Source: Planctomycetota bacterium (GTDB taxonomy: Bacteria; Planctomycetota; GCA-002687715; CAIWVZ01). Taken from it: 64,000 nt of DNA. Each line of letters starts with the position of its first letter. Position 1 is the first letter of the stretch. Made by a program: the position numbers and the translations under genes. Positions 51,632 to 64,000 of the stretch are shown here, in pieces. A model generated the notes under the pieces. It was not told the origin of the DNA. It searched no databases and saw only the letters and a program-made list of their open reading frames with translations. Where the stretch lies: assembly GCA_044222185.1 (NCBI GenBank), contig JBGANV010000002.1, positions 832,001 to 896,000 of the forward strand. The letters run 5' to 3'.

Positions 51632-51791
51632 GGAGCGCCAGGCTCCGTCTGGCTCGGCGGGGGAGGCTCCGCCTGTACCGGAACGTCGATGGGCTTCTCG
51701 TTCGCAACGCACAGGAGCCCGATCGATCACCGCACCGCCCAGGCAGGGCGGAAGCCCTGCCACCCACCCGCGCGGAGCGCTGCGCTCCTAC
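51632..51791. repeat. REPIN-like inverted doublet, copy 3
   Basis: Degenerate GGAGCGCCAGGCTCC at 51632; minus-strand GTAGGAGCGCAGCGCTCC..GGCAGGGCTTCCGCCCTGCC at 51742-51791. Confidence 0.65.
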
Positions 51792-54700
51792 GGGTACTGC
51801 ACGAATCCCAGCGGCAGCGAGGTGATCGCCGGCACGAACGGCACGCACTGCGCTGGCGCGGGCGTCGTGAGGCCGCAGAACGACGGGACGACGTTTCCAG
51901 ACACCATCAGGCTTTGCAGCGTCGTGCGCAGCGCATTCGCGGCGGTCAGACCGTGTGCGTTCACGGCGACGCGTACGCGGCCGACGCCGGCTGATCCGCC
52001 GTTCGCCGTGATCGTGGTGGGAGTCGTACCCTGCGGGGGCCGCCCGCCGATGCCGCCCATGGCGCTGAGTACCTTCACGTTGGACGGCAGCGCAGCCGGA
52101 AATTGGGCGTCGGCGACCGCCCCGATGAAGATCGATCCGCCGGAGCCGGCTCCGCCGCTTCCAGGCGCGCAGAGAACGAGCAGCGGGTCCTGGTTCGGGA
52201 TCGGGAATGCGTCGATGCCTCGCTGACCGTCCTCGCCGTTGGCGAAGATGCGGCCGTGGGACCCCAGGGCGAAGATCCGATCCGACAGGAGGACGACGGA
52301 GCCTCCGCCGTTGCCTCCGCGACCACCGATCGAGAGACACGGCACGATGATCGCGAGTGAGCCGCCACCGCCGCCACCACCCGATCCGCCGGCGAAGAAC
52401 CCGCTGGGGAACGCGCTCCCGGACGATGGGAGAAGCGTCGCGAAGTCGCTCGCAGTGGCTCCGAAGATGTCCACGTCGGCAGCCGGTCGACCGGGCGTCG
52501 CCGCGGGAACGTTGGCGTTGCTTCCGTAGGTGACGCCGGCAGTCGCGGCGAGCGTGGCGCCTGCCTGCCCGGGGAATCCCGGCGTTGCGAACCCGGCACC
52601 GGCACCGGCGCCCGCTTGTCCACCGGTGGGCGATACGCCGAGTCCCCCGCGCCCGCCGGACGGCACGTACGTCGCCGCGCCGGTCGCTCCGCACGGCGTC
52701 GTCGTTCCGTTGGCGAGCAGCTTCTCGCGCTCGCGGTCCATCGGGAAGTACCCACACGATGCCGCCAACTGCGCAGCCGACGCGCCCAGGTTCGGAGACG
52801 GGATCACGAGAGGCAGCGTGGGAAGCACGCGCACGCTGCTCGGTGTCCCGATCACCGGAAGCGTCGCCAATCCCCACGGGTAATAGGCTCCGCCGTGCCC
52901 TCCGAGGCCGCCGCCGGCCGGCGGTCGTTGGAACTCCGTGCGGAAGTAGAAGAGGTGGGGCGACCCGAGGACGTTCGTGCTCGCGTCCGCGAGTGACCCG
53001 CCTCCGACGTTCAGGAGGCCGTCGAAACGAAGATCTCCATGCGACCTGAGAACGAACGGGTAGTTCTGGTCCACCAGGTTGTGGACGTTGAATCCGGCCG
53101 TCGAACCGCTCGCCGTGAATTCCGTCGCCGTGGCTTTGAAGATCACGCGCTTTGGTCCCGCGCTGATCGTTCCGAACGGCGTGTTGACGGAGGTCGCGAG
53201 CTGGATGGTCGCCGGAACGTCGATGGCGTCGAAGTCGAAGATGCGCGGCGACCCGTCATGGCGTCGCGTGTTGAACAAGAAGATGCCGTCGTACATGTTC
53301 GACGTGAAGCAGGGGTTCCCGTTCGCGTTGTCGAGGGCGAAATCCTCGGCCGGGTTCGGGTTCGGGAGGAATGCGAGGCCCTGTCCGACCAGGACGTTCG
53401 TCACCGAGGGATTCCATTCAGCCAACGCCTGAAGCGCGCAGCGGTCGAGGCGGTGGAAGCGATCCGCCGGGAGCAGCGGAGGAACGGCGTCGAGGCTGTT
53501 CGCGGGGTCCGTGAGTCGCGGGACGACGTCGATCGTGATCGGATTCGAGATGCGGCCGTCCGGGTTGATCACCGTCACGCTGATGGTCGCTGGCGCGGCC
53601 AGAGGGAGCGGAAGATCCGCGATCAGCGTGTTGCCGTCGAGCAGCACGACGCGTGGCGCTACGACCCCGCCGAACATGACGACGGGGACGTTGACCGCTG
53701 CCAGTTGCGGCACGACGCCGAACCCCTGGGAAACGCCGTCAGCGCACGGGGTGGATTCGAGCGAGCACGGAGCCGGGCTGCCGCCCGTTGGCGCTGGGCA
53801 GGCCGGCGTCGTCGGCGACGTCAGGTTGCAGTCGCAGCCGAAGGTATTGGTCGGCGCCGGCAGCGTTCGCGCGAAGAAGTTCGACCCGCAGATCGTGACG
53901 GGCGTCGAGACGAGCTGCGCGAGAGTCCCTGCGGAGGTCGTGAGAGTGCGCAGCCCGCCGGGTGTGATCACGTTTGGGACCACCGATGCGAGGCTCGGTG
54001 GGTTCGCGTCCTGCACGAGCACGTCCATCTCGTTGCTGGGGAGCTCCGTTTGGTTTCCCGTTCGAACGCAGCGCGGGTTGACAACTCGCAGTCGCTTCAC
54101 GCCGAGGTAGGGCCTCCACGCACCCGTCTGGTCGCCGACCGAGGCGGTGACGCTGATCGAGGACGACGACGTGACGCCCGCCGCAGCACCCACCGCGGCG
54201 AACAGGGGTTGCTGCGGGTTTGCCGCGTCGAAGATCTCGGTTCGCGTCTGTGCGAGCACCGACGACTGCTGCGGCACGGTCGGGGCGCCGAACAGCGGGC
54301 TGAACCCGGAGATGAAGTTCGTTCCCGTCAGCGACAACGTCGAGCCCGTGTCGAGGATGACGGGGTAGGACGATGGCCCGCCGAGGACGTTCACGGCAGT
54401 GGTCGGCTGCGCGTTGGTGATGGTCGGCGCCAGCTCGACGTACGTGAGCGTGAACGGAGCCGTCACCTGCTGATCGGGGTTGATGATCTCGAGGGTCACC
54501 GGGCCCGTGCAGTAGGGTGGCGCCTGGATCGTGAGCGTCGTGGGCGTCGGGGTGCCCAAAATGCACGAACCCGCATTCGCGAATGCGCCCGCGGCAGGTG
54601 CGAACGTCGTCGAGGTCCCCGCGCCAACGGGCGTGAACCGGACGCTCGCACCCACGAGGAAGTCCGTCCCCGAGATCGTGATCTGCCCACCCTCGGGTGA

Positions 54701-56953
54701 GATCGACGCGGAGGGAGTGACGGCGCTGATCACAGGCCCGCGTCCCAGGCAGTAAGTGAAATTCACGGGCGCGAAGATCGGCGCGACGGACGGTGGGTTC
54801 GTGATGAGCTGGATCGGGAACGAGCCCACGGTGGATGCCGGCGGGCACGACGGCATGGCCGCGGGCGGGACGACCGCGGTGATCGTCGTGCTGTCGACGA
54901 CCACGACGTTCGAACAGGCCACTCCCGCGATCGTGAGCGCGGGGAGGTTGCAGTTCGCCTGCGCCGGGAAGTTGACTCCCGTGAGCGTGAGGAGCGTTCC
55001 GCCGGTCTCGATGCCGGAGGGGGCTGGCGTTCCGGCGGGGCAGGTGTTGCCGGATGCGACGACGCTCGTGATGACCGGGTCGTCGTACACGAGCGTGGCC
55101 TGCGCCGTGCGCTGCCCGTCGAGGTTGATCACTTCGACGAGAACGTTCCCCGAGCAGAAAGGCGGGGCCGTGACCGTCACCGTCGTCGCCGAGGGGCCCG
55201 TGGTGCTACATGCGCCGATTGCTGCGAAGGCGGACGGAGGCGGGGAGATGTCGAATACCCCGGTGGGCGGCGGCGGTGTGAATCGCACGATGGCGCCGTT
55301 GAGGAAATCCACGCCGGAGATCGTAACTGTGGCGCCGTCCGCCGGGACGTGCGACGGCGTGATCGACGTGATCGTCGGCGTGCGGCCCAGGCAGTAGAGG
55401 AAGTTCTGCGGAGCGAGGATCGGCACGGTCGCTGGCGGATTCGTCACGAGCTCGACTGGGAACGATCCGATGGACGTCGACGGTGGACACGAGGGCGTCG
55501 GGATCGGCGGCACCTGGGCGACGATCGCGTTGCTGTTGAGCACGACGACGTTCGTGCAGGCGACGCCGCCGACCGTGATCGACGGCGCGCCGCAATTGGG
55601 CTGGGCTGGAAAGTTGATCCCGGTGATGGTGATGAACGTACCGCCCGTTTCGGCGCCGCTCGGAGTCGGGGATCCGCTCGCGCAATCGTTCCCGGAGGAC
55701 GTCAGCCCGAGGATCACGGGTGCGTCGTACTGGAGTGACGTCGAAGCGGAGGCCTGCCCGTCGGGGTTGATCACCTGGACGGCCACGACGCCGGAGCACA
55801 GCGGCGGCGCTTGCAGCGAGACGATCGTCGCCGTCGTCGCCGACGTGGAGCACGCACCGAGGCTCGCGAAGGAGCCGGGCGGAGGCGTCACGTCGACGGG
55901 CGCGCCGGGCGGATTCGTCGGAGTGAACCGCACGATCGCCCCCACGAGGAAGTCGGAGCCGATCAACGTGATCGGTGCTCCGTCCGCGGGGATCGTCGGC
56001 GGGAGGATCGACCCGATCGCGGGAGTCCGCCCCGAGCAGTACGTGAAGTTGACGGGGGCCGACGCGAACGTCGAGGACGGCGAGAGCGTGGTGTTGTTGC
56101 GCACGGCGACGGTTGCGGCGCCGGCAGACGTGGCCGGAGGGCAGGTGGCGAACGGCGTCGCGGGAACGATCGCCGTGATCGTGGTCGAGTTCACGACCGT
56201 GACGGAGGTGGCCGGAACGCCTCCGACGAGCACGTCGGGGGGGAACGTGACGGCGTTCGATTGGGCGAGGAAGTTCGTGCCCGTGATCGTGAGCAGAGAG
56301 CCGCCCGTCTCGGGTCCGGACGGAGATGGCGTACCGACCGGGCAGGATCCACTCGATGTGACGCCCGTCACCGCTGGTGGAAAGTTCACCGCCGGATCGA
56401 CCAACTGGAACTCCACGGCGTTGGAGAGGAGGAACGGCGTGGCGCCGCCGGAGCCGTCGTCGCAGATGGCTTGCAACGTCAGCGGGGGGAGGCCCGGCAA
56501 TGCGAATTGGGGGTCGAATAGATCGGCGCCGACCGTGATCGCGAACGAGCTTGGACCGGCGATGCCGGGCGCGAAGACCGGGTCGAATGGACGGGAGTAC
56601 GAATCGATGACGAAGAGCGGCGCGGGAGCCGCGTTCGGGTCGATGAAAGCGATGCCCGGGAGCGGCGTGGCGGGAACGAGAACGCCGTTGCAGCTCGCCA
56701 CGCCGAGCACCAGGAGGATCCTCCGCGGAGTGACCCCAGAGAATGGCGAACTGGGTGTCGACGCGAAGGTGAGCGTCAGTGCCTCGGTGCGGACGACGTC
56801 GAGGATCAGCGGGATCGTCGTCGTCGAACACGTCACCGTCGTCGCCGGTGTGAGGTGAGACGGCGACGGAGTCGTCAGGGTCAACGTGAAGGACTGGGCG
56901 CACAGGCTCGCGGAACACAGGGCCGCGAACGCAACGGTCAAGACTCTTCGCAT
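51788..56953 (-). CDS. Giant secreted IPT/TIG-repeat protein with Gly-rich C-terminal domain (1721 aa)
   Basis: Signal peptide, repeated GGTxxTITGxNF / VxNPDGQ units, GGxGGxGGG tail. Confidence 0.85.
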   Translation of the reverse strand: MRRVLTVAFAALCSASLCAQSFTLTLTTPSPSHLTPATTVTCSTTTIPLILDVVRTEALTLTFASTPSSPFSGVTPRRILLVLGVASCNGVLVPATPLPGIAFIDPNAAPAPLFVIDSYSRPFDPVFAPGIAGPSSFAITVGADLFDPQFALPGLPPLTLQAICDDGSGGATPFLLSNAVEFQLVDPAVNFPPAVTGVTSSGSCPVGTPSPSGPETGGSLLTITGTNFLAQSNAVTFPPDVLVGGVPATSVTVVNSTTITAIVPATPFATCPPATSAGAATVAVRNNTTLSPSSTFASAPVNFTYCSGRTPAIGSILPPTIPADGAPITLIGSDFLVGAIVRFTPTNPPGAPVDVTPPPGSFASLGACSTSATTATIVSLQAPPLCSGVVAVQVINPDGQASASTSLQYDAPVILGLTSSGNDCASGSPTPSGAETGGTFITITGINFPAQPNCGAPSITVGGVACTNVVVLNSNAIVAQVPPIPTPSCPPSTSIGSFPVELVTNPPATVPILAPQNFLYCLGRTPTITSITPSHVPADGATVTISGVDFLNGAIVRFTPPPPTGVFDISPPPSAFAAIGACSTTGPSATTVTVTAPPFCSGNVLVEVINLDGQRTAQATLVYDDPVITSVVASGNTCPAGTPAPSGIETGGTLLTLTGVNFPAQANCNLPALTIAGVACSNVVVVDSTTITAVVPPAAMPSCPPASTVGSFPIQLITNPPSVAPIFAPVNFTYCLGRGPVISAVTPSASISPEGGQITISGTDFLVGASVRFTPVGAGTSTTFAPAAGAFANAGSCILGTPTPTTLTIQAPPYCTGPVTLEIINPDQQVTAPFTLTYVELAPTITNAQPTTAVNVLGGPSSYPVILDTGSTLSLTGTNFISGFSPLFGAPTVPQQSSVLAQTRTEIFDAANPQQPLFAAVGAAAGVTSSSSISVTASVGDQTGAWRPYLGVKRLRVVNPRCVRTGNQTELPSNEMDVLVQDANPPSLASVVPNVITPGGLRTLTTSAGTLAQLVSTPVTICGSNFFARTLPAPTNTFGCDCNLTSPTTPACPAPTGGSPAPCSLESTPCADGVSQGFGVVPQLAAVNVPVVMFGGVVAPRVVLLDGNTLIADLPLPLAAPATISVTVINPDGRISNPITIDVVPRLTDPANSLDAVPPLLPADRFHRLDRCALQALAEWNPSVTNVLVGQGLAFLPNPNPAEDFALDNANGNPCFTSNMYDGIFLFNTRRHDGSPRIFDFDAIDVPATIQLATSVNTPFGTISAGPKRVIFKATATEFTASGSTAGFNVHNLVDQNYPFVLRSHGDLRFDGLLNVGGGSLADASTNVLGSPHLFYFRTEFQRPPAGGGLGGHGGAYYPWGLATLPVIGTPSSVRVLPTLPLVIPSPNLGASAAQLAASCGYFPMDREREKLLANGTTTPCGATGAATYVPSGGRGGLGVSPTGGQAGAGAGAGFATPGFPGQAGATLAATAGVTYGSNANVPAATPGRPAADVDIFGATASDFATLLPSSGSAFPSGFFAGGSGGGGGGGSLAIIVPCLSIGGRGGNGGGSVVLLSDRIFALGSHGRIFANGEDGQRGIDAFPIPNQDPLLVLCAPGSGGAGSGGSIFIGAVADAQFPAALPSNVKVLSAMGGIGGRPPQGTTPTTITANGGSAGVGRVRVAVNAHGLTAANALRTTLQSLMVSGNVVPSFCGLTTPAPAQCVPFVPAITSLPLGFVQYP
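54400..56390 (-). repeat. Three tandem ~205-aa IPT-IPT units within the CDS (approximate bounds)
   Basis: SGSCPVGTPSPSGPETGG, SGNDCASGSPTPSGAETGG and SGNTCPAGTPAPSGIETGG, each followed by NFxYCxGR. Confidence 0.75.
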
Positions 56954-56966
56954 GCTCGCCTCGCGA

Positions 56967-59900
56967 TCAGAAATCGGTCGTGTCCGCAGGTGGATCGATC
57001 ATCGCACTCAGCGAGATCTGGCGTGCAAAGGCCGGTGTCGCCGATTGGGTTGGAATTGCGATGCGGATGATGGCCTTGGCGCCACCGCCTCCGTTGTTCG
57101 AGCCGACCGTCCCGCCCACGCCGCCCGTCCCGCCGATGCCAGTGATCACTGCTGTATCCCCGATGCGGATACCCTGCAGCGCCGCCAGGCCGATGCCACC
57201 TCCGCCGCCGCCACCACCACCGCCGCCGGAGTAGGTCGTGATGACGTTCACACCACCGGACCCGCCGTCGCCACCGTTGGTGTTGATCGTTCCGTTGATC
57301 GTCAGGATCCCGTCGCAGGCGAGGAACAACCCGCCGCCTCCGTGTCCGCCGCGCCCGTTCTGACCGAGATCGGCGAAGACGGACGATGCGGTGACGGGCG
57401 TCGTGCTGCCGATGCCGCCGGCCCCGCCGCCCGCGCCGCCGGGCGGCAGGCCGAATTGAAGTCCCGTCGATCCCGTCAATTGCGGGAACGGCAGGTAGAG
57501 GGTCGGGAAGGAGTAGGCGTTCCCACCCAATCCGCCGGCAGCCACGTACGGCGATGGCGCGTCCTGTCCGGCCACGCCTGCGGTGCTCATGGCTCCGCCA
57601 CCGCCGCCGGCCGCGATCCACGCGTGACCGCCGCCGCCGCCGAAGGCCTGAGCGAAGGGGACTCCCAGGAACGGGTTGTTCGGCGCCGTTCCGCTCGCAC
57701 CCGCGCTCGAGGATTGGAGCGAGAGATTCGCGAGACTCACCGCGTCGCCGCCGATGCCAGCTCCCGCTGGGACCTGGTCGGTCGCGATCAGGGATTCACC
57801 GCTGAGGTCGATGGTGCCATCGAGCGTCAGGTTGCCGCGGCAGCGGATGATCAACGGGGCGGCGCCGTGTGCGTTCACGAGGAAGCCGGCCGGGATCGTC
57901 GTGTCGAGGTCGAACGTGAAGATGACGGGCCCCGATCCGCTGACGACCGTGTCGAGCGAAATGCTGCTGCCGGTGAGCGCGAACGGATGGGGCGCCTGTC
58001 CCGCAAGTCCGGGGACGAGTGTGAAATCGTTGCCCGTGACGTTGTCGCGCAGCTCACCTCCCGGTTGGATCACCGGCGTCGAGCTTGGTTGTCCGTCGAC
58101 GTTCGCGGCGATGACGTCCAGACCGAACGGCAGGAGCAGCCCTGAGTTGGTGACGTCCGGCGTCGTGAAGCGCAACGTGTGCTCGTCGATCATCGCGCTG
58201 AACGTGAGCGCCGCGGCGAGGTTCAGTGCGCTGTACGCAGCGATCGTCGTCGTGGTCGGGGTCGCCGTTCCGAAGGAGGTTGCCTGCGTGAAGAAGTTGT
58301 TGCCCTTCACGTCGATCGTCTGACCGCCGGCGACTCGTCCGACGTTGTTGGGCTCGATGGAGAGAACCGTTGGAGCCGGGCCGCGGTACACGACGTGATT
58401 GCTAGGCTCATTCGCCGGAATGGAGGCGTAGTCCCGGTGGACGGTGGAAAACTGAGACGGCAGCGTGATCCGGACGAATTTCGTGCCCGTGTTCGTCAGG
58501 CCGGGCCCGCTGGATCCGCTGGCCCCCGTCGGATTCAGCCCCGGTGGATACCCGGGGAAGGTCACGGCAATGCTGAACTGACCAGGAGCCGTGATCGATA
58601 CCGGCTGCGCGACCAGCGCCGCATCCGCGTCCGTCCCGAGGATGTTGGAGCCGACGCGCACCTGCGCTGCGCCGATGGCGGGATCGAGAAGTGAGTAGCC
58701 ACCGATCACCGGGCACGTGCCGACGATCGTACCGGCGGAGCCCGCAGCCCCCTCGTCGATCGAGCCCGGCGTGACGGACGTCACGGTCACCCCGCCAGCG
58801 ACGAAGTTGTAGTAGACGTAGTCCGTCGTCGGCGCGGAGAGTGCCGACTGGCGTGGGGACGAGGAAACGTGATCGCGATTCCGCACGGTCACGGCCGCAA
58901 CTCCCTCCGCCCCGGCGGGGACGACGGCGTCGATCTGCGTTCCCGAGATGACCGTGACGGAGGGCGACAAGGCATCACTTCCGCCGAACGAGGTGAAGAT
59001 CACCGTCGCACAGTCCAGGAAGTTGGTGCCCGCGATGTGCACGGTGTTCCCGCCGGTGACGGGCCCGCCCTTGGGCGAGATCGCCGTGATCGTGGGAAGC
59101 ACCGCGGACTGGAACGCGAGGAACGTGGAGGAGCTCTCGGGCGAACTGATCGTCGATGAGGTGGCGTTCGCAGGGTGGTTGGGGAAGAGCCCGGAGGACG
59201 TGTAGTCGACGGTGACCAGGATCTCGCCCGTCGGCGAGTTGATACCGCTCGTTCCCCCCCCGATGGTCGACGGTGCGGTGCAGCGAAGCACCGCGCCGCT
59301 CGCGGCCGTGACGACGGTGACGTTGGTTGCGAACGACGAGAGTGCGCCCCCGCACGCTCCCGTCGTCGAGAATCGGATCGAGGGGAGGAACGGGGCGCGT
59401 GCGAGCACGGGCCCGCGGATCTCGATCGTCGGCGTCGTTCCTTCGGTGAAGGTGTGTGGCGTCACGAGGGTCACGGGTCCCAGGGCCGCCGGTTCGTCGA
59501 ATCGCAGGTCGACGTGGGGCGACGCGAGAAAGGTGGCGCCGCTCGTCGGATTTTGGAGACCGATGGCCTGGAGCTGGAAGATTGCCGGCAGACCAGCGAG
59601 GGCTCCGACGGGGACGCTCACGAAGAGGCGGACGTTCCCCGTGAGGTCGGTGCGCAGTCCCGGAGCCGCGGGGTTGCCGCCGTTGAGTCCGAGTCCGTCC
59701 CAACCCGGAACGGGAATCCAGTGAGCCGGATCGATCTCGAGAGCGCCCGAAAGCAACGGGTGCGTGAACGAGTAGGTCGTGCATGGCACCGCCCCGCAGC
59801 CGCCGATCAGGATCGTGATCGGCAGAAGCGGCGCGAACCCGGCGACGTCGATCTGGAGAACCTCACCCGGTATGAATGACGCGCTCGGGGCGACCGCACT

Positions 59901-59993
59901 GGGATCGACGACCGAGCGCACGGTGAGGGTCTGGCCGTCGGCGACCACGACGAGGGCAGCGACGAACACGGCGATCCGGGCGTGACTGATCAA
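56967..59993 (-). CDS. Secreted IPT/TIG-domain protein with Gly-rich C-terminal domain (~1008 aa)
   Basis: TTG start with GGAGAGG RBS, signal peptide, ISPKGGPVTGGNTVHIAGTNF, Gly-rich tail similar to the neighbouring gene's. Confidence 0.82.
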   Translation of the reverse strand: MISHARIAVFVAALVVVADGQTLTVRSVVDPSAVAPSASFIPGEVLQIDVAGFAPLLPITILIGGCGAVPCTTYSFTHPLLSGALEIDPAHWIPVPGWDGLGLNGGNPAAPGLRTDLTGNVRLFVSVPVGALAGLPAIFQLQAIGLQNPTSGATFLASPHVDLRFDEPAALGPVTLVTPHTFTEGTTPTIEIRGPVLARAPFLPSIRFSTTGACGGALSSFATNVTVVTAASGAVLRCTAPSTIGGGTSGINSPTGEILVTVDYTSSGLFPNHPANATSSTISSPESSSTFLAFQSAVLPTITAISPKGGPVTGGNTVHIAGTNFLDCATVIFTSFGGSDALSPSVTVISGTQIDAVVPAGAEGVAAVTVRNRDHVSSSPRQSALSAPTTDYVYYNFVAGGVTVTSVTPGSIDEGAAGSAGTIVGTCPVIGGYSLLDPAIGAAQVRVGSNILGTDADAALVAQPVSITAPGQFSIAVTFPGYPPGLNPTGASGSSGPGLTNTGTKFVRITLPSQFSTVHRDYASIPANEPSNHVVYRGPAPTVLSIEPNNVGRVAGGQTIDVKGNNFFTQATSFGTATPTTTTIAAYSALNLAAALTFSAMIDEHTLRFTTPDVTNSGLLLPFGLDVIAANVDGQPSSTPVIQPGGELRDNVTGNDFTLVPGLAGQAPHPFALTGSSISLDTVVSGSGPVIFTFDLDTTIPAGFLVNAHGAAPLIIRCRGNLTLDGTIDLSGESLIATDQVPAGAGIGGDAVSLANLSLQSSSAGASGTAPNNPFLGVPFAQAFGGGGGHAWIAAGGGGGAMSTAGVAGQDAPSPYVAAGGLGGNAYSFPTLYLPFPQLTGSTGLQFGLPPGGAGGGAGGIGSTTPVTASSVFADLGQNGRGGHGGGGLFLACDGILTINGTINTNGGDGGSGGVNVITTYSGGGGGGGGGGGIGLAALQGIRIGDTAVITGIGGTGGVGGTVGSNNGGGGAKAIIRIAIPTQSATPAFARQISLSAMIDPPADTTDF

Positions 59994-60151
59994 GCGCCTC
60001 TCCCAAGCAATCCCGAACGTGGCTTCGGCACGACACCCCCGCCATTGGACGACCGACTCGACCAGCCTTCCCTCGCGGTCGGACGGACCCGACGAGGTCG
60101 TCGTGCGGCGCGCGGGGACGCGACGAGGACTCCAAGCGTTTGCGGCGTCGT

Positions 60152-60181
60152 ATACTATGGCCCTCCTGCGAGCACGGTCAA
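60152..60181 (-). promoter_or_regulatory. Putative sigma70 promoter for the IPT genes
   Basis: TTGACC-N18-TAGTAT on the minus strand in the divergent intergenic region. Confidence 0.45.
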
Positions 60182-60324
60182 TCGCACAGTGACTGGGTTT
60201 GGAGCGTGGGTGACAGCCCGCGCCCCGGCCGCTTTTGGTGAGATCGTTCCGTGTTATCCAGGGCGCCGCACGCGTGCGTCGACCGGTTCGCTCGGATCTC
60301 ACACCCGGAAAACTGGCCCACCGT

Positions 60325-62064
60325 ATGCCCGAGCTCCAAGTCCTGACTGGACCGCTCCAGTGGAAAACCGTCCGATTGGAGGGGTCGCGATTCCTCATCG
60401 GGCGGAAGGACGGTTGCCATCTCGTGCTCAAGGATGGGTGGGTGTCCCGTGAGCACACGGTCATCATCGAGCCGCAGCCGGGCGAATTCCACGTCCAGGA
60501 CCTGGACAGCGAGAACGGCACCTACCTGAATGCGGAGCGGATCCGCGAGCGGGTGATGAAACACGGGGACATTCTCCGCGTCGGCCGTACGGAGATGCGA
60601 TTCGTTCTGCGGGCGACTGCAGGCGATCCGGCGTTTCCGCCCCAGGCGAACGTACCGCCACCGCCACCCGCCGCGTCGCCTGCGCCAGGACCGGCGGACG
60701 CTCCCAAGCCTGCACGCGTGTTCGACATGACGCAGACCGTCATCGACAGTCGCATCACCAACGGCCCGCCATCCGACACGCCGCGGATCGATCTTCGCGA
60801 GCGCGTTCGGCGCCTGGAGAGCCGGCTCCATCAGCTGGAGGAGGACAACGCCGCGTTCGCGGCCGAGAACGCCGTGCTCAAGCGCAACTTCGCCCGGATG
60901 GGGTTGCTCGATCGCACGACCGGTCAGGTGGACGTGTCCCGTTTGACTCCTCAGAGCCGGCCGGTCGTTCCGGAATCGCTCGTGCCGTTCATCTCGAATC
61001 CGTCGGCGCACATCGCGTTTCCCACGCCTGACGGCGGCGCGGTCGAGCCTGAGACCGTGCGACCCTCGGGGTGCCCGCCGGGGGTCTTGAAGGTGGGCAT
61101 TTTGGGGATCGACGGCGCCGGGCAACGTCTGGCCGAGGCTTTTGCACGTCTGGGCTACCTCCGCAACGTCGTTGTGGTTTGCGAACGCGACTCCATGCGC
61201 GGCGGCATGATCGAGCCTGAGTGGAGGTTGTTCGTCGACGTGCCGGAGCGGGCGCGTGGACCGGCCGATCACCCGCTGAACGCAGTTCTTCCGCGGATCG
61301 AGGAAGTCTGTGCTTCGGCGTTTGCTGGCGCTTGTGACCTCGTGTTCATTTGTTGCGATCTGGCCAGCCCGCTTGCCGCGGACGCCGTATCCATGCTCGC
61401 GGGTGTGATCCGCGGCCACGGGGTCAGGGTTGGCGCGCTGGTCCTGATCGATGACACGGAAGCGGGGCGTGAGCCGCAGAAGGCGGGGCGCGCCGCGGCG
61501 ACGTGGTCGGCGCTTCGGGCGGCGAGCGATGCGGGGACGGTTGGCCCGGTAATTGCCGCGGAACGGAGTCGGTTTGGAGCTTCGGCTTCGGGGCCGGGCC
61601 GGTCGATGGATGATTCGGTGGCGGGCGTCTGCGACGCACTTCTGCGACTACCGGCGATGCCGGGACTGGTGGCGGACTGGGAGCCCTCGCACGCCCGTGA
61701 GTGTCTTCTCGAGCAAGGGTTTGCGACCATGGGACGCGCGGCGTCAAAAGACGCGGGTGAGGATGCGCTCGAGCGTTGCGCTCGGCACGCGATCACCAAG
61801 GGTGCCATGTGCGGGCTGATGCCAGCCTCGCGCGCCCGGTCGGCCTTCGTTTTCGGGATGGTCGGAAGCGAGATCCTGGCCAAGGAGCCTGCTGCGGCAG
61901 GCCGGCTGGAATCTGCCTTGGAGCGAGTGTCCGGGGATTTGCCCCAGGCGCGACGCCTCCGCGGCGTTTATCAGGACGCAGGACGATGGGTTCGCACGGT
62001 GGCGTTTCTGGGCGGGCAGCCCTTCCCCGAAACGCCTTGGCTCGAGCGTGAGAAGAGGCGCTGA
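60325..62064 (+). CDS. FHA domain + Pro-rich linker + coiled coil + tubulin/FtsZ-like domain
   Basis: Intact FHA motifs (IGR, VSREH, SENGT). From about 61084: KVGILGIDGAGQRLAEAF, CDLVFIC, VGALVL, GFATMG, RGVY..VAFLGG, following FtsZ/CetZ topology. Confidence 0.72.
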   Translation: MPELQVLTGPLQWKTVRLEGSRFLIGRKDGCHLVLKDGWVSREHTVIIEPQPGEFHVQDLDSENGTYLNAERIRERVMKHGDILRVGRTEMRFVLRATAGDPAFPPQANVPPPPPAASPAPGPADAPKPARVFDMTQTVIDSRITNGPPSDTPRIDLRERVRRLESRLHQLEEDNAAFAAENAVLKRNFARMGLLDRTTGQVDVSRLTPQSRPVVPESLVPFISNPSAHIAFPTPDGGAVEPETVRPSGCPPGVLKVGILGIDGAGQRLAEAFARLGYLRNVVVVCERDSMRGGMIEPEWRLFVDVPERARGPADHPLNAVLPRIEEVCASAFAGACDLVFICCDLASPLAADAVSMLAGVIRGHGVRVGALVLIDDTEAGREPQKAGRAAATWSALRAASDAGTVGPVIAAERSRFGASASGPGRSMDDSVAGVCDALLRLPAMPGLVADWEPSHARECLLEQGFATMGRAASKDAGEDALERCARHAITKGAMCGLMPASRARSAFVFGMVGSEILAKEPAAAGRLESALERVSGDLPQARRLRGVYQDAGRWVRTVAFLGGQPFPETPWLEREKRR

Positions 62065-62124
62065 CGGGGCGCCGCGTGCGAACGCCGAACATGAGGGGCC
62101 ACATGGGACTCGCTGGATCACGAC

Positions 62125-63660
62125 ATGGACATCTTGGATCGCGCGGGGGGAGCCCTCCTCGGGATGGCAATCGGCGAGGCGCTCGGCGCACCGCTCGAGG
62201 GCCTGACGCATGAGCAGGTGCTGAAACGACTGGGGCGGCTGGAGGGATTCGTCGATCCGCGGCGGACGCAGCCTCCTTATCGTTCGGGGTATTTCCAACT
62301 CGGCGTGTACGAGGACGAGACGCAGATCGCGCTCGCCGCGGCGGAAGTCGCCATCAAGAACAACGGGTTCTCACCGGACCTGTTTCGCGACCGCCTGGAT
62401 GAGCTCGGACAGCCCGTCGACGGCAACGCGTTCGGTTGTTTCCGGCGCGCACGGCGGAACTTCCGCGTTGCCGTCAGGCGCATGCAGAAGGGCGCGACCT
62501 GGCAGACCTCGGGCGTGAACACAGCGGGCAGCGGGGCCGCGAGCCGAGGAATCCCCATCGGGGTCTACTACCACTCCGATCGCGTCCAGCGGACACGCAA
62601 GGCGATCGAGGCGGGCCTCGTCACGCACAAGGACCCGCGAGGAATCGCTGCATCGGTGGCCATGGCGCACGGTACGGCGGTCGCGATGGCTGCCGCGCCG
62701 CAGGGCTTCGACATCGAGGGGTTCATCAGGACCCTCGTTGCAGAGTGCCGCGAGGCCGAAGACGTGATGGCGGCGGAGTACGGGCAGTATCTGCAGGTGG
62801 GTTTCGAGCCGTTCCTGCACCAGATCTCCGACGGTCTGAAGATGCTGACCGAGCTCGTGACCCTGGACCTCGAGCCCGCGTTCGCGAAGATCGTCGGGTT
62901 CGCTCACGGCAAGGGATCCCGACCGATCACGCAGGCGACGCGTGGCTTCTCTCTGACGGAGCTGCTCACGACGTTCTACTTCTTCCTCACGGGCCTCGAT
63001 TCGTACGAGGAAACCGTGCTCGACGTCGTTGCGGAGGGTGGAAGCAGCGATTCGCTCGGTTGCCTCGTGGGCGGACTCCTCGGCGCCTTGCACGGTGCCC
63101 GGGGGATCCCCGATACGTGGCGCGCTCAGCTGAAGAACTCGGACCAGGTCGAGCTGCGCGGGCGAATCCTGGGGGGTGCGCCGCGCGAAGGGTTGAAGTC
63201 CCTCCTTCTCCTCGAGGCAGCACTCACGCAGCCGATTCCGAAGGTCCGGCCCAAGCAGAAGGGGGACGCACAACGCGGTGGTCCGCGTCGCGGCCCTCAA
63301 CGCGGCGGTGGCCGAGGCGGGCCGCGAGGGCGGCCGATGCGCGGAGGCCCGCGCGGAGCCGGGGGAGGCCGCGGGGCCCCGAGGGGCGGACCGGGCGGAA
63401 GGCGTCCCATGGGCGGCCGCGGCGGCGGTCCGGGCCGGGGGCCCGGGGGAGGCGGCATGCGCGGCGGCCCGGGCGGCAGGCCTGGCGGTCGGCCCGGGTA
63501 TGGTGGCGGACCTCGTCCGCCCGGGCGTTCCGGTTACGGTGGCGGCCCCGGGCCGACCCGTCCGCCGTCGGGGGACTGGCCGCCGGCACCCGGGGGCGGT
63601 CCCGGCGCGTCGCCGGATCGGCCCCGGCCGCGTCGGAGTTCCCCTGAGGCACCGGAATGA
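62125..63660 (+). CDS. ADP-ribosylglycohydrolase (DraG/ARH) family protein with RGG-rich tail
   Basis: GALLGMAIGEALG, YEDETQ, AGSGAASR..PIG, VTH, GGSSDSLGCLVGGLLGALHG..IP..W, then about 140 aa of R/G/P low complexity. Confidence 0.88.
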   Translation: MDILDRAGGALLGMAIGEALGAPLEGLTHEQVLKRLGRLEGFVDPRRTQPPYRSGYFQLGVYEDETQIALAAAEVAIKNNGFSPDLFRDRLDELGQPVDGNAFGCFRRARRNFRVAVRRMQKGATWQTSGVNTAGSGAASRGIPIGVYYHSDRVQRTRKAIEAGLVTHKDPRGIAASVAMAHGTAVAMAAAPQGFDIEGFIRTLVAECREAEDVMAAEYGQYLQVGFEPFLHQISDGLKMLTELVTLDLEPAFAKIVGFAHGKGSRPITQATRGFSLTELLTTFYFFLTGLDSYEETVLDVVAEGGSSDSLGCLVGGLLGALHGARGIPDTWRAQLKNSDQVELRGRILGGAPREGLKSLLLLEAALTQPIPKVRPKQKGDAQRGGPRRGPQRGGGRGGPRGRPMRGGPRGAGGGRGAPRGGPGGRRPMGGRGGGPGRGPGGGGMRGGPGGRPGGRPGYGGGPRPPGRSGYGGGPGPTRPPSGDWPPAPGGGPGASPDRPRPRRSSPEAPE

Positions 63661-64000
63661 ACGAGTTCCTGGAGTTCGACCACCAGAGCGACAAGGGCAT
63701 GGTCCGGTCAGAGAACCAGGACCGTGCCGGCGTCTGGGTGCCGCCCGCGTTGGACGAGGCGCGAAGGAAGGGCACGCTCTTCGTCGTCTGCGACGGCATG
63801 GGTGGTCATAACGGCGGAAGCGTCGCGAGCGCGACGACCGTCGACGCATTGCTCGCGAGCTATCGCGAGGGGGACCAGCCAGGTGTGCGCAGCCGCCTCG
63901 CGGCTTCGATCGACCGTGCGAACGCGGCCGTGCGCGTGAAGGCCGGCGCCGACATCACGCTGCGGAACATGGGAACGACCTGCGTTGCGGTCGCCATCCG
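63657..64000 (+). CDS. PP2C/PPM Ser/Thr protein phosphatase (3' partial; not in the ORF track)
   Basis: Hand translation SDKGMVRSENQD..LFVVCDGMGGHNGG..MGTTCVAV. ATGA overlap with the ARH stop. Confidence 0.92.
   Translation, partial: MNEFLEFDHQSDKGMVRSENQDRAGVWVPPALDEARRKGTLFVVCDGMGGHNGGSVASATTVDALLASYREGDQPGVRSRLAASIDRANAAVRVKAGADITLRNMGTTCVAVAI

Follow-up and report, generated by a model that had tools for sequence, protein, structure and literature searches.

The window analysed here is a 64,000-nucleotide stretch of the Planctomycetota bacterium assembly GCA_044222185.1 (contig JBGANV010000002.1, positions 832,001-896,000), and its right end carries a gene cluster built around a protein in which an FHA domain, a reader of phosphothreonine, is joined to a tubulin/FtsZ-like fold. 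Twenty kilobases (20 kb) across that end were read as locus L002, whose coordinates convert as window position = L002 position + 58000. The listing of open reading frames (ORFs) gave five tightly spaced, co-oriented ORFs on the + strand, namely genes 1 to 4 and one unconserved ORF, separated in order by a 60-bp gap, an ATGA overlap, a 13-bp gap, and a 4-bp overlap. A first-pass annotation of the window had described the first three of these as a phosphothreonine reader on an FtsZ-like fold, an ARH-family protein with RGG repeats, and a phosphatase, co-oriented and with the first two spacings as given here; each element of that description is borne out below. Gene 3 was completed from the assembly, and its stop codon lies 670 bases past the window end. 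GC content across the region is even with its surroundings. Scans for promoters and terminators remained at chance level: there were 3 promoter-like sites, none of them at a useful position, where 0.9 were expected, and 6 terminator-like sites where 4.8 were expected. Coordinates are collected in the table.

Table. Features of the locus and of its neighbourhood. Positions are those of the window unless a locus prefix is given.
Feature	Position	Strand	Size or residues	Details
Gene 1, FHA / linker / helix / TubZ-FtsZ-like	60325-62064	+	579 aa	ORF
FHA domain	60325-60606	+	residues 1-94	beta-sandwich (residues 3-94), pLDDT 86-97
Pro-rich, Thr-containing disordered linker	60619-60771	+	residues 99-149	pLDDT ~40, poorly conserved
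35-residue helix	60793-60897	+	residues 157-191	DSSP on model; conserved motif EDNARLAAENAVLKRA
Two-domain tubulin/FtsZ fold, closest to TubZ	61093-62061	+	residues 257-579	profiles, model, fold search
T4 tubulin-signature loop position	61336-61392	+		reads DLVFICCDLASPLAADAVS, no GGGTG[ST]G; hidden Markov model (HMM) alignment to FtsZ
Gene 2, ARH with Arg/Gly/Pro-rich tail	62125-63660	+	511 aa	ORF
ARH domain	62125-63264	+	residues 1-380	motifs GEALGAPLE, YEDET, GGSSDS
Arg/Gly/Pro-rich low-complexity tail	63265-63660	+	132 aa	7 RGG; R 19%, G 40%, P 22%
Gene 3, Stp1-type PP2C	starts 63657, leaves window at 64000, ends L002:6670	+	337 aa	
Gene 4, Hanks kinase / 2 transmembrane segments / FHA	L002:6684-8258 (beyond window)	+	524 aa	
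ORFs u212, u163, u250, after the kinase	L002:8255-10400	+	212, 163, 250 aa	
IPT/TIG-repeat protein	51788-56953	-	1721 aa	
IPT/TIG-repeat protein	56967 to ~60011	-	~1014 aa	
DUF2290 protein and UvrD-like helicase (outside window)	L002:10649-13545	-	helicase 739 aa	
Extra FHA gene of five relatives	L014:14021-14347, L015:2705-2992, L016:2580-2915, L020:13501-13749, L021:2901-3209			

The tubulin/FtsZ fold of gene 1 escapes searches with the single sequence. Domain libraries reported no FtsZ or tubulin family for the protein, a single-sequence search of PDB sequences returned no FtsZ, so that profiles were needed, and a word-indexed search for homologues of residues 230-579 recovered nothing beyond the query protein. 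Pfam Tubulin, TubZ-like_C (PF22453), and Tubulin_2 (PF13809) all failed to match the window protein, and its relatives L014 and L016 scored 20.7 and 27.7 bits on Pfam Tubulin, below the cut-off of 33. When 1.84 billion representative proteins were scanned in full with HMMER, residues 230-579 had 36 relatives at E <= 0.001, 13 of them at E <= 1e-10. The resulting family profile (37 rows) matched M. jannaschii FtsZ (E = 3e-16) over both domains and the TubZ-like RepX at E = 2e-16. A second profile, built from only the 10 C-terminal domains of the host's order, reached FtsZ at E = 3e-6, and its alignment placed the family onto the T1, T4, and T7 loops of FtsZ.

Structure prediction gave the same answer. 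The AlphaFold2 model of residues 220-579 had a pLDDT of 90.2 and a pTM of 0.91, and its top Foldseek match was TubZ (2xkb, E = 7e-17, TM-score 0.74), followed by FtsZ and CetZ, with alignments of ~320-380 columns spanning the whole length. There were at least 500 PDB fold matches at E <= 0.001, and ranks 1-50 as listed were all TubZ, FtsZ, or CetZ. In a viral structure library, the best match was an uncultured phage 'FtsZ' (E = 3e-19, TM-score 0.77), followed by phage tubulin-like proteins including PhuZ. PHROGs returned no match for the FtsZ-like domain; a feature search of the ESM Atlas pointed to phage tubulin clusters with a score of 0.92, which we treat as a lead only. Based on the two family profiles and the AlphaFold2/Foldseek result, the fold is real: gene 1 belongs to the FtsZ/tubulin superfamily at the fold level, and the fold is complete in both domains.

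Orthologues share an MxELQVLNG N-terminus, which fixed the start of gene 1 at the ATG at 60325, and Pfam FHA matched residues 24-87 with E = 4.7e-16 (59.4 bits against a cut-off of 20.7). G26, R27, S41, R42, H44, N64, and G65 are invariant in 10 orthologues; they cover the Gly-Arg, Ser-x-x-His, and Asn-Gly residues that we take to be FHA ligand contacts, and this pattern fits a working reader. The best NCBIfam match of the domain was FhaB/FipA, at 68 bits against a cut-off of 125. The full-length model (pLDDT 84.6) consists of four parts, FHA domain, linker, helix, and tubulin fold (257-578), and the protein is computed to be soluble. Positions L164, L168, E181, V184, and L185 of the helix are conserved in the orthologue alignment, and the helix is a candidate coiled coil. 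As for the linker, a motif resembling a phosphorylation site, (F/L)D(M/L)T(I/V)H(E/D)PG, occurs in L013-L016; the window protein reads IDSRITNG there, and the motif was kept as a lead only.

Downstream of gene 1, the cluster encodes an opposing phosphatase and kinase. Gene 3 matched PP2C_2 in the library scan and passed the Stp1/IreP NCBIfam model (245.2 bits against a cut-off of 230), its metal motifs (DGMGGH, GDSR, TDG, EDN) are intact, and hydropathy predicts a C-terminal membrane anchor both in this protein and in 10/10 orthologues. Gene 4 combines a Hanks kinase domain (Pkinase, E = 1.8e-54, 185 bits), whose catalytic motifs VAVK, HRDVKPNN, DFG, and APE are intact, with a C-terminal FHA domain (E = 6.6e-18). 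Between the two domains lies a hydrophobic stretch of ~50 residues (~305-373), seen by hydropathy in the protein itself and in 7/7 orthologues, which we infer to be a hairpin of two helices, with both domains on the cytoplasmic side. Assignment as a PASTA kinase equivalog was rejected, since the protein scores 242 bits on PknB-type models against a cut-off of 450. The first-pass annotation had anticipated that a kinase or an active tubulin partner might follow the window; the kinase does follow, but no tubulin partner was found there or elsewhere in the genome.

The arrangement recurs in relatives. Using tblastn of six operon proteins against nine relatives' loci, we found the complete order FHA-FtsZ-like / ARH / PP2C / kinase-FHA in five of them (L014, L015, L016, L017, and L018), which supports the reading of the first three genes as a conserved operon. 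Two more, L013 and L019, run from the FHA-FtsZ-like gene to ARH and then reach the contig end, and L020 and L021, which belong to family f2, read FHA-FtsZ-like / PP2C / kinase-FHA with no ARH. PP2C and kinase thus follow gene 1 in all 8 of the 8 loci that extend past ARH/PP2C (our own, L014-L018, L020, and L021), and ARH stands between the FtsZ-like gene and PP2C in 8/10 loci (our own and L013-L019). The order recurs in three families of one order of Planctomycetota metagenome-assembled genomes (MAGs). Since it is kept among relatives whose gene 1 proteins are only 24-38% identical, the arrangement is more than chance.

Conservation is uneven within the module. An ARH orthologue was found at E 1e-10 in 0/9 f2 genomes and in 12/23 genomes of the order. 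Conversely, ARH-PP2C(-kinase) occurs without the FtsZ-like gene in L116, L117, and L118 (L119 ends inside ARH), and genomes from genera g2 and g5 likewise retain ARH-PP2C, with no FtsZ-like gene detected; the family profile had no match in these genomes, which are 2.4-3.2 Mb in size and 86-97% complete. The constant element is PP2C, usually with the kinase; the FtsZ-like gene and the ARH gene are each present in some loci and missing from others. We therefore argue that the phospho-signalling pair has these two as clients or accessories, and the same pattern argues against ARH acting specifically on the FtsZ-like protein.

Distribution is narrow. The family profile matched 11/23 genomes of the order at E <= 1e-5, ten strongly and one with a weak, partial match. 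Among 401 sampled genomes of the phylum, there were 15 with a match: the 11 just named, three with weak matches, and G334, which alone matches clearly from outside the order, through an FHA-less TubZ-like protein of 447 aa. G334 has two FHA-less TubZ-like genes, L114 (G334:C32, E = 1e-41) and L115 (G334:C57, E = 1.5e-11), and tblastn found no PP2C or kinase neighbours for them. The full-length relatives in named records were all Planctomycetota MAGs. An alignment-based locus search returned 80 loci, mostly of unrelated FHA proteins; those covering the whole protein (L022-L027 and L029) lie on the same contigs as those of relatives found earlier. In the host genome, which is 93.8% complete, the family profile had only one match and Tubulin_2 none. 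Pfam Tubulin was likewise without a match there, and 13/14 control genomes matched it. The earlier supposition of a planctomycete host lacking canonical FtsZ is supported. This fits a phylum in which, according to passages of PMC11032199, FtsZ is lacking.

In this organism, the T1, T3, T4, and T7 nucleotide loops of the fold are degenerate. GGGTG[ST]G (T4) and NxDxxD (T7) served as the reference motifs, with positions from the HMM alignment. At these positions the window protein reads CDLASPLAADA in T4, where FtsZ has GGGTGTG, and ADWEPS in T7, where FtsZ has NLDFAD; T1 reads GIDGAGQ, and the T3 loop of FtsZ (GLGAGA) has no counterpart in the family profile. Some relatives are less altered. 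T4 is GLGG[AVS]TG[IVA]G in L014, L015, L016, P0006, and P0015 and GGGTG in FHA-less relatives, and some relatives combine a near-canonical GGxTGxG loop with a DxD T7 loop. Among 37 aligned rows (27 with FHA and 10 without, five near-duplicate pairs included), GG.[TS]G.G is kept in 6/27 FHA-bearing rows (L014, L015, L016, P0006, P0007, and P0015) and not in the other 21, and 6/10 rows without FHA have a canonical GGGTG-type loop.

DNA near-identical to L002:2200-8900 occurs in activated-sludge and bioreactor metagenome runs from several studies, and three runs of one other study cover the operon piecewise with few substitutions and no indels. The T4 region in the contigs of these three runs differs by substitutions only, with no indels, and the degenerate T4 loop is therefore not an assembly error.

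The FHA-less rows point to where the family came from. They are stand-alone proteins of 353-414 aa; all 5/5 that were scanned match Pfam Tubulin, and 4/5 also match TubZ-like_C. We computed a tree of 29 rows, after removal of three fragments and five duplicates, in which a 100/100 branch sets the seven FHA-less rows apart from the rest. The signature needs to have changed at least twice on branches with good support, and five changes is the most parsimonious number. The picture is of a TubZ-like GTPase that appears to have gained an FHA domain and then to have lost its nucleotide motifs in several lineages, including this one.

The ARH domain of gene 2 matches Pfam ADP_ribosyl_GH (PF03747) with E = 4.3e-47 (161.6 bits against a cut-off of 26.2), and it is the sole PF03747 gene of the genome. 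Solved relatives include MJ1187 (E = 1e-20), chain 6dre (E = 8e-13), which is deposited as ADP-ribosyl-(dinitrogenase reductase) hydrolase, DraG, and ARH3; PHROGs matched the phage ARH family phrog_6572 at E = 8e-19. The only two NCBIfam matches were Tri1 (58.3 bits against a cut-off of 490) and DraG (83.1 against 337), and both scores lie so far below their cut-offs that an equivalog of either was ruled out. The motifs GDALG..E, xTDDT, and GGD[TA]D[ST] of MJ1187/DraG have become GEALGAPLE, YEDET, and GG[S/N/D]xD[S/T] in this clade. YEDET, in place of xTDDT, is invariant in 8/8 orthologues, and the first Asp of GGDxDT is S or N in 7/8, remaining D only in L017; two canonical acidic metal-ligand positions are thus replaced. 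Because the metal-ligand motifs are altered, hydrolase activity appears uncertain. Arg-rich tails also follow the ARH domains of the orthologues (G >= 30% in 7/11 rows). No partner transferase was identified for the ARH; searches for DraT and PARP families found no match in the genome, a result without weight, as the same searches matched no control genome either.

We propose that the four genes form an operon for Ser/Thr phospho-signalling with a tubulin-fold protein derived from TubZ at its centre, in which a membrane kinase/PP2C pair would gate a scaffold that is probably nucleotide-free, and we give this reading an even chance of being correct. The kinase would phosphorylate threonines on itself and/or on the gene 1 linker. 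The FHA domain of gene 1 could then dock on these phosphothreonines, bringing the tubulin-fold protein to the membrane and/or linking it into an assembly together with the helix, which could pair two chains, and PP2C would dissolve the assembly. In lineages like this one, the phospho-switch would replace the ancestral GTP switch, and the protein would act not as a dynamic GTPase filament but as a scaffold free of nucleotide. For the same kinase and phosphatase, the ARH-RG protein may be a further client or accessory, separable from the FtsZ-like one. It would be either a pseudoenzyme that binds ADP-ribose or a hydrolase of ADP-ribose whose metal site is unusual, and possible roles of its Arg/Gly-rich tail are nucleic-acid binding or the promotion of clustering. 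The first-pass annotation had envisaged a module under dual control by phosphorylation and ADP-ribosylation: the former is well founded on context, but the latter remains speculation, and the link between ARH and the FtsZ-like protein is loose.

It is important to note several points that weigh against the gated-scaffold proposal. Phosphorylation, binding, assembly, and localisation are all inferred for the gene 1 system. The loss of GTP binding is read from motifs, and a divergent pocket could still bind nucleotide. The FHA-fused part of the tree is poorly resolved, with 9/26 inner branches open, which makes the number of independent signature losses uncertain. All genomes concerned are uncultured MAGs of one order, and the TIG-repeat genes upstream are syntenic too; conserved gene order is partly shared ancestry. 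Finally, the scaffold leaves the role of ARH unexplained. The module was also not found in 12/23 genomes of the order, and it therefore does nothing indispensable: it is an accessory rather than an essential divisome.

A more elaborate version of the phospho-gated scaffold would have a mobile-element TubZ domesticated in one planctomycete order, with threonine phosphorylation replacing the GTP switch, a coiled coil and FHA docking providing assembly, and ARH adding a layer of ADP-ribose control. As a whole we consider this rather unlikely. If it were true, a phylum that has no FtsZ would possess a pseudo-GTPase of the tubulin superfamily whose gating depends wholly on post-translational modification.

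Three other explanations were weighed. The protein could instead be a working GTP-dependent filament, regulated by phosphorylation, that replaces FtsZ in division or serves DNA segregation. TubZ relatives are segregation filaments, the tubulin fold here is complete in both domains, the genome is without FtsZ, and, as described above, some relatives keep near-canonical T4 and T7 loops. However, the window copy has no recognisable T4, T3, or T7 motif, the gene was found in only 10/23 genomes of the order, the sole clear match outside it in the sample of 401 genomes is FHA-less and TubZ-like, and the small g2 and g5 genomes, which are 86-97% complete, yielded no copy. A functional filament of this kind is therefore improbable in our judgement.

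Another explanation, close to one offered in the first-pass annotation, takes ADP-ribosylation as the key. The FtsZ-like protein would be ADP-ribosylated, either endogenously or by Tre1-like toxins, and ARH would remove the mark; or the protein would act as a decoy or sensor for ADP-ribosyltransferases that target FtsZ. Tri1 reverses Tre1 ADP-ribosylation of FtsZ, and the Tri1 and DraG models are the two that gene 2 matches, both far below their cut-offs. The position of ARH directly between the FtsZ-like gene and PP2C in most loci, and its being the only PF03747 gene of the genome, would also suit such a pairing. Yet the f2 loci do without ARH, no ARH orthologue was found in the nine f2 genomes, and ARH-PP2C persists where no FtsZ-like gene was found, in L116-L119 and across the whole genomes of g2 and g5. 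In addition, the ARH motifs are altered, and neither the FtsZ-like protein nor ARH has a PADLOC match. The decoy/sensor idea gained no support from these results, and we regard the explanation as very improbable.

The least probable account is a conflict or anti-phage system, in which a phage-derived tubulin homologue would serve as sensor or effector under kinase control. Its nearest relatives by fold and feature are phage and plasmid tubulins, and passages of PMC7159879 place tubulin homologues in GTPase-centred conflict systems. The kinase domain does match PADLOC kinase models, e.g. PD-T4-6, but this is generic Hanks similarity, as the bit score of the same protein on PknB-type models indicates; against PADLOC 2.0, only generic kinase and PP2C models matched, and the FtsZ-like protein, ARH, and the three downstream ORFs had no match. 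A PADLOC-matching DUF2290 and helicase pair lies 2.4 kb downstream in this genome, but it was not found beside the operon in relatives, where the downstream ORFs have no tblastn matches. No effector domain (nuclease, protease, or pore former) was found, GC content is even with the surroundings, and the locus is syntenic across families, upstream neighbours included, unlike a variable defence island; these observations speak against the idea, and we regard it as very improbable.

The gated scaffold can be compared with several known systems. TubZ and the phage tubulins are plasmid and phage segregation GTPases of the FtsZ/tubulin superfamily, with a TubZ-type C-terminal domain (PF22453 or PF21493) and GTP-dependent filaments that work with a TubR adaptor as their hallmarks. 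TubZ and PhuZ-type phage tubulins resemble gene 1 most, being its best structural match over both domains, and its nearest FHA-less sequence relatives carry Pfam Tubulin and TubZ-like_C. In contrast to TubZ, gene 1 adds an N-terminal FHA domain, a linker, and a helix, the window copy is without the tubulin signature, and the gene sits in a chromosomal operon with a kinase and a phosphatase, where no TubR-like gene was recognised.

The organisation of the operon recalls the FHA / PP2C / Hanks-kinase triads, T6SS (type VI secretion system) Fha1-PpkA-PppA and actinobacterial FhaA/FhaB-PstP-PknA/B. In such triads, a membrane kinase makes phosphothreonine marks, an FHA client docks on them, and PP2C erases them. 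The logic is the same here, with membrane kinase, opposing PP2C, and FHA client encoded together; the output domain of the client differs, being a tubulin fold, and the locus holds no T6SS or peptidoglycan-synthesis genes. A paper reporting that FipA binds FtsZ is marked as retracted and has no part in this comparison. Tri1, DraG, and ARH3 share the Pfam family PF03747 with gene 2, which departs from them in its altered metal-ligand motifs, its long RG-rich tail, and scores far below the equivalog cut-offs.

Links between tubulin-like domains and Ser/Thr signalling are well established in the phylum. The portions of Makarova and Koonin 2010 (PMC2875224) that we drew on describe FtsZl1 and four planctomycete FtsZ-like proteins with an N-terminal kinase domain, and passages of PMC11032199 name the tubulin-like domain as the commonest partner of cytoplasmic serine/threonine kinases in Planctomycetota. 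FtsZl1 (Tubulin_2) is thus, as far as those portions go, a divergent tubulin-superfamily protein of the same phylum wired to Ser/Thr phospho-signalling, as gene 1 would be. The same portions place FtsZl1 in vWA/OmpA contexts and fused to the kinase itself, whereas gene 1 is fused to an FHA reader and the kinase is a separate membrane protein. By fold, gene 1 also appears to keep a TubZ-type C-terminal domain, with no Tubulin_2 match in protein or genome, and its domain order differs from that of FtsZl1 (FtsZ-like N-domain / coiled coil / alpha-helical C-domain). A further parallel comes from the haloarchaeal Halo_FHA ESCRT loci, for which passages of PMC10936438 describe FHA-CdvA-like fusions with serine/threonine kinase and phosphatase neighbours. 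As in gene 1, FHA is fused there to a cytoskeletal or membrane-remodelling protein; going by those passages, family and domain of life differ, and the likeness is an analogy only. We found no paper on an FHA-tubulin/FtsZ-like fusion or an ARH-PP2C operon, with the limit that architectures of this kind could be listed in the supplementary tables of PMC2875224 and PMC11032199. Nor did any paper turn up on the combination seen here, in which a TubZ-type family with degenerate motifs is fused to FHA and accompanied by a PP2C, an ARH-RG gene, and a membrane kinase encoded separately.

Division takes place without FtsZ in Planctomycetota, for which the organisation of division and shape is an open question. 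In one planctomycete order, a full tubulin fold persists, fused to a phosphothreonine reader and locked in an operon with a membrane kinase and a phosphatase, and the family has been caught at different stages of GTP-motif loss. It may thus offer a natural series, with concrete proteins, in which to follow the change of a cytoskeletal GTPase into a scaffold that is independent of nucleotide and gated by phosphorylation. A smaller, separate puzzle of bacterial ADP-ribose signalling is posed by the link of the ARH-RG protein to PP2C. Narrow distribution (10/23 genomes of one uncultured order) and dispensability limit this significance, and the function is predicted only.

Several neighbours of the operon deserve mention. 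The three ORFs after the kinase, of which u212 has a hydrophobic segment at its N-terminus, have no Pfam family above threshold, no PADLOC match, and no tblastn match in the relatives' loci; lacking Pfam or tblastn matches, they were not counted as members of the system. On the opposite strand, 2.4 kb past the kinase, the DUF2290 protein and the UvrD-like helicase match PADLOC models PDLC02998 (E = 9e-13) and PDLC03002 (E = 7e-146), which makes them, in this genome, a putative defence pair next to the operon.

Upstream and divergent from the operon lie two giant secreted IPT/TIG-repeat proteins with Gly-rich C-terminal regions. Homologues occupy the same position in L013, L014, L016, L017, and L019 and are not found in the f2 loci; this could reflect a functional link with the operon or plain synteny. 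The second of these genes is listed as a 1184-aa ORF (56967-60521, -), which is over-extended. Its stretch 60012-60521 is spurious: the first ~70 residues are antisense to the 5' end of the FHA gene, and conservation of the FHA coding sequence accounts for the 'matches' of this extension in relatives. To judge from a stretch resembling a signal peptide, the true start may be further inside.

No additional opposite-strand FHA gene was found within 20 kb at the window's own locus. In five relatives (L014, L015, L016, L020, and L021), a further FHA-domain gene lies on the opposite strand just past the kinase.

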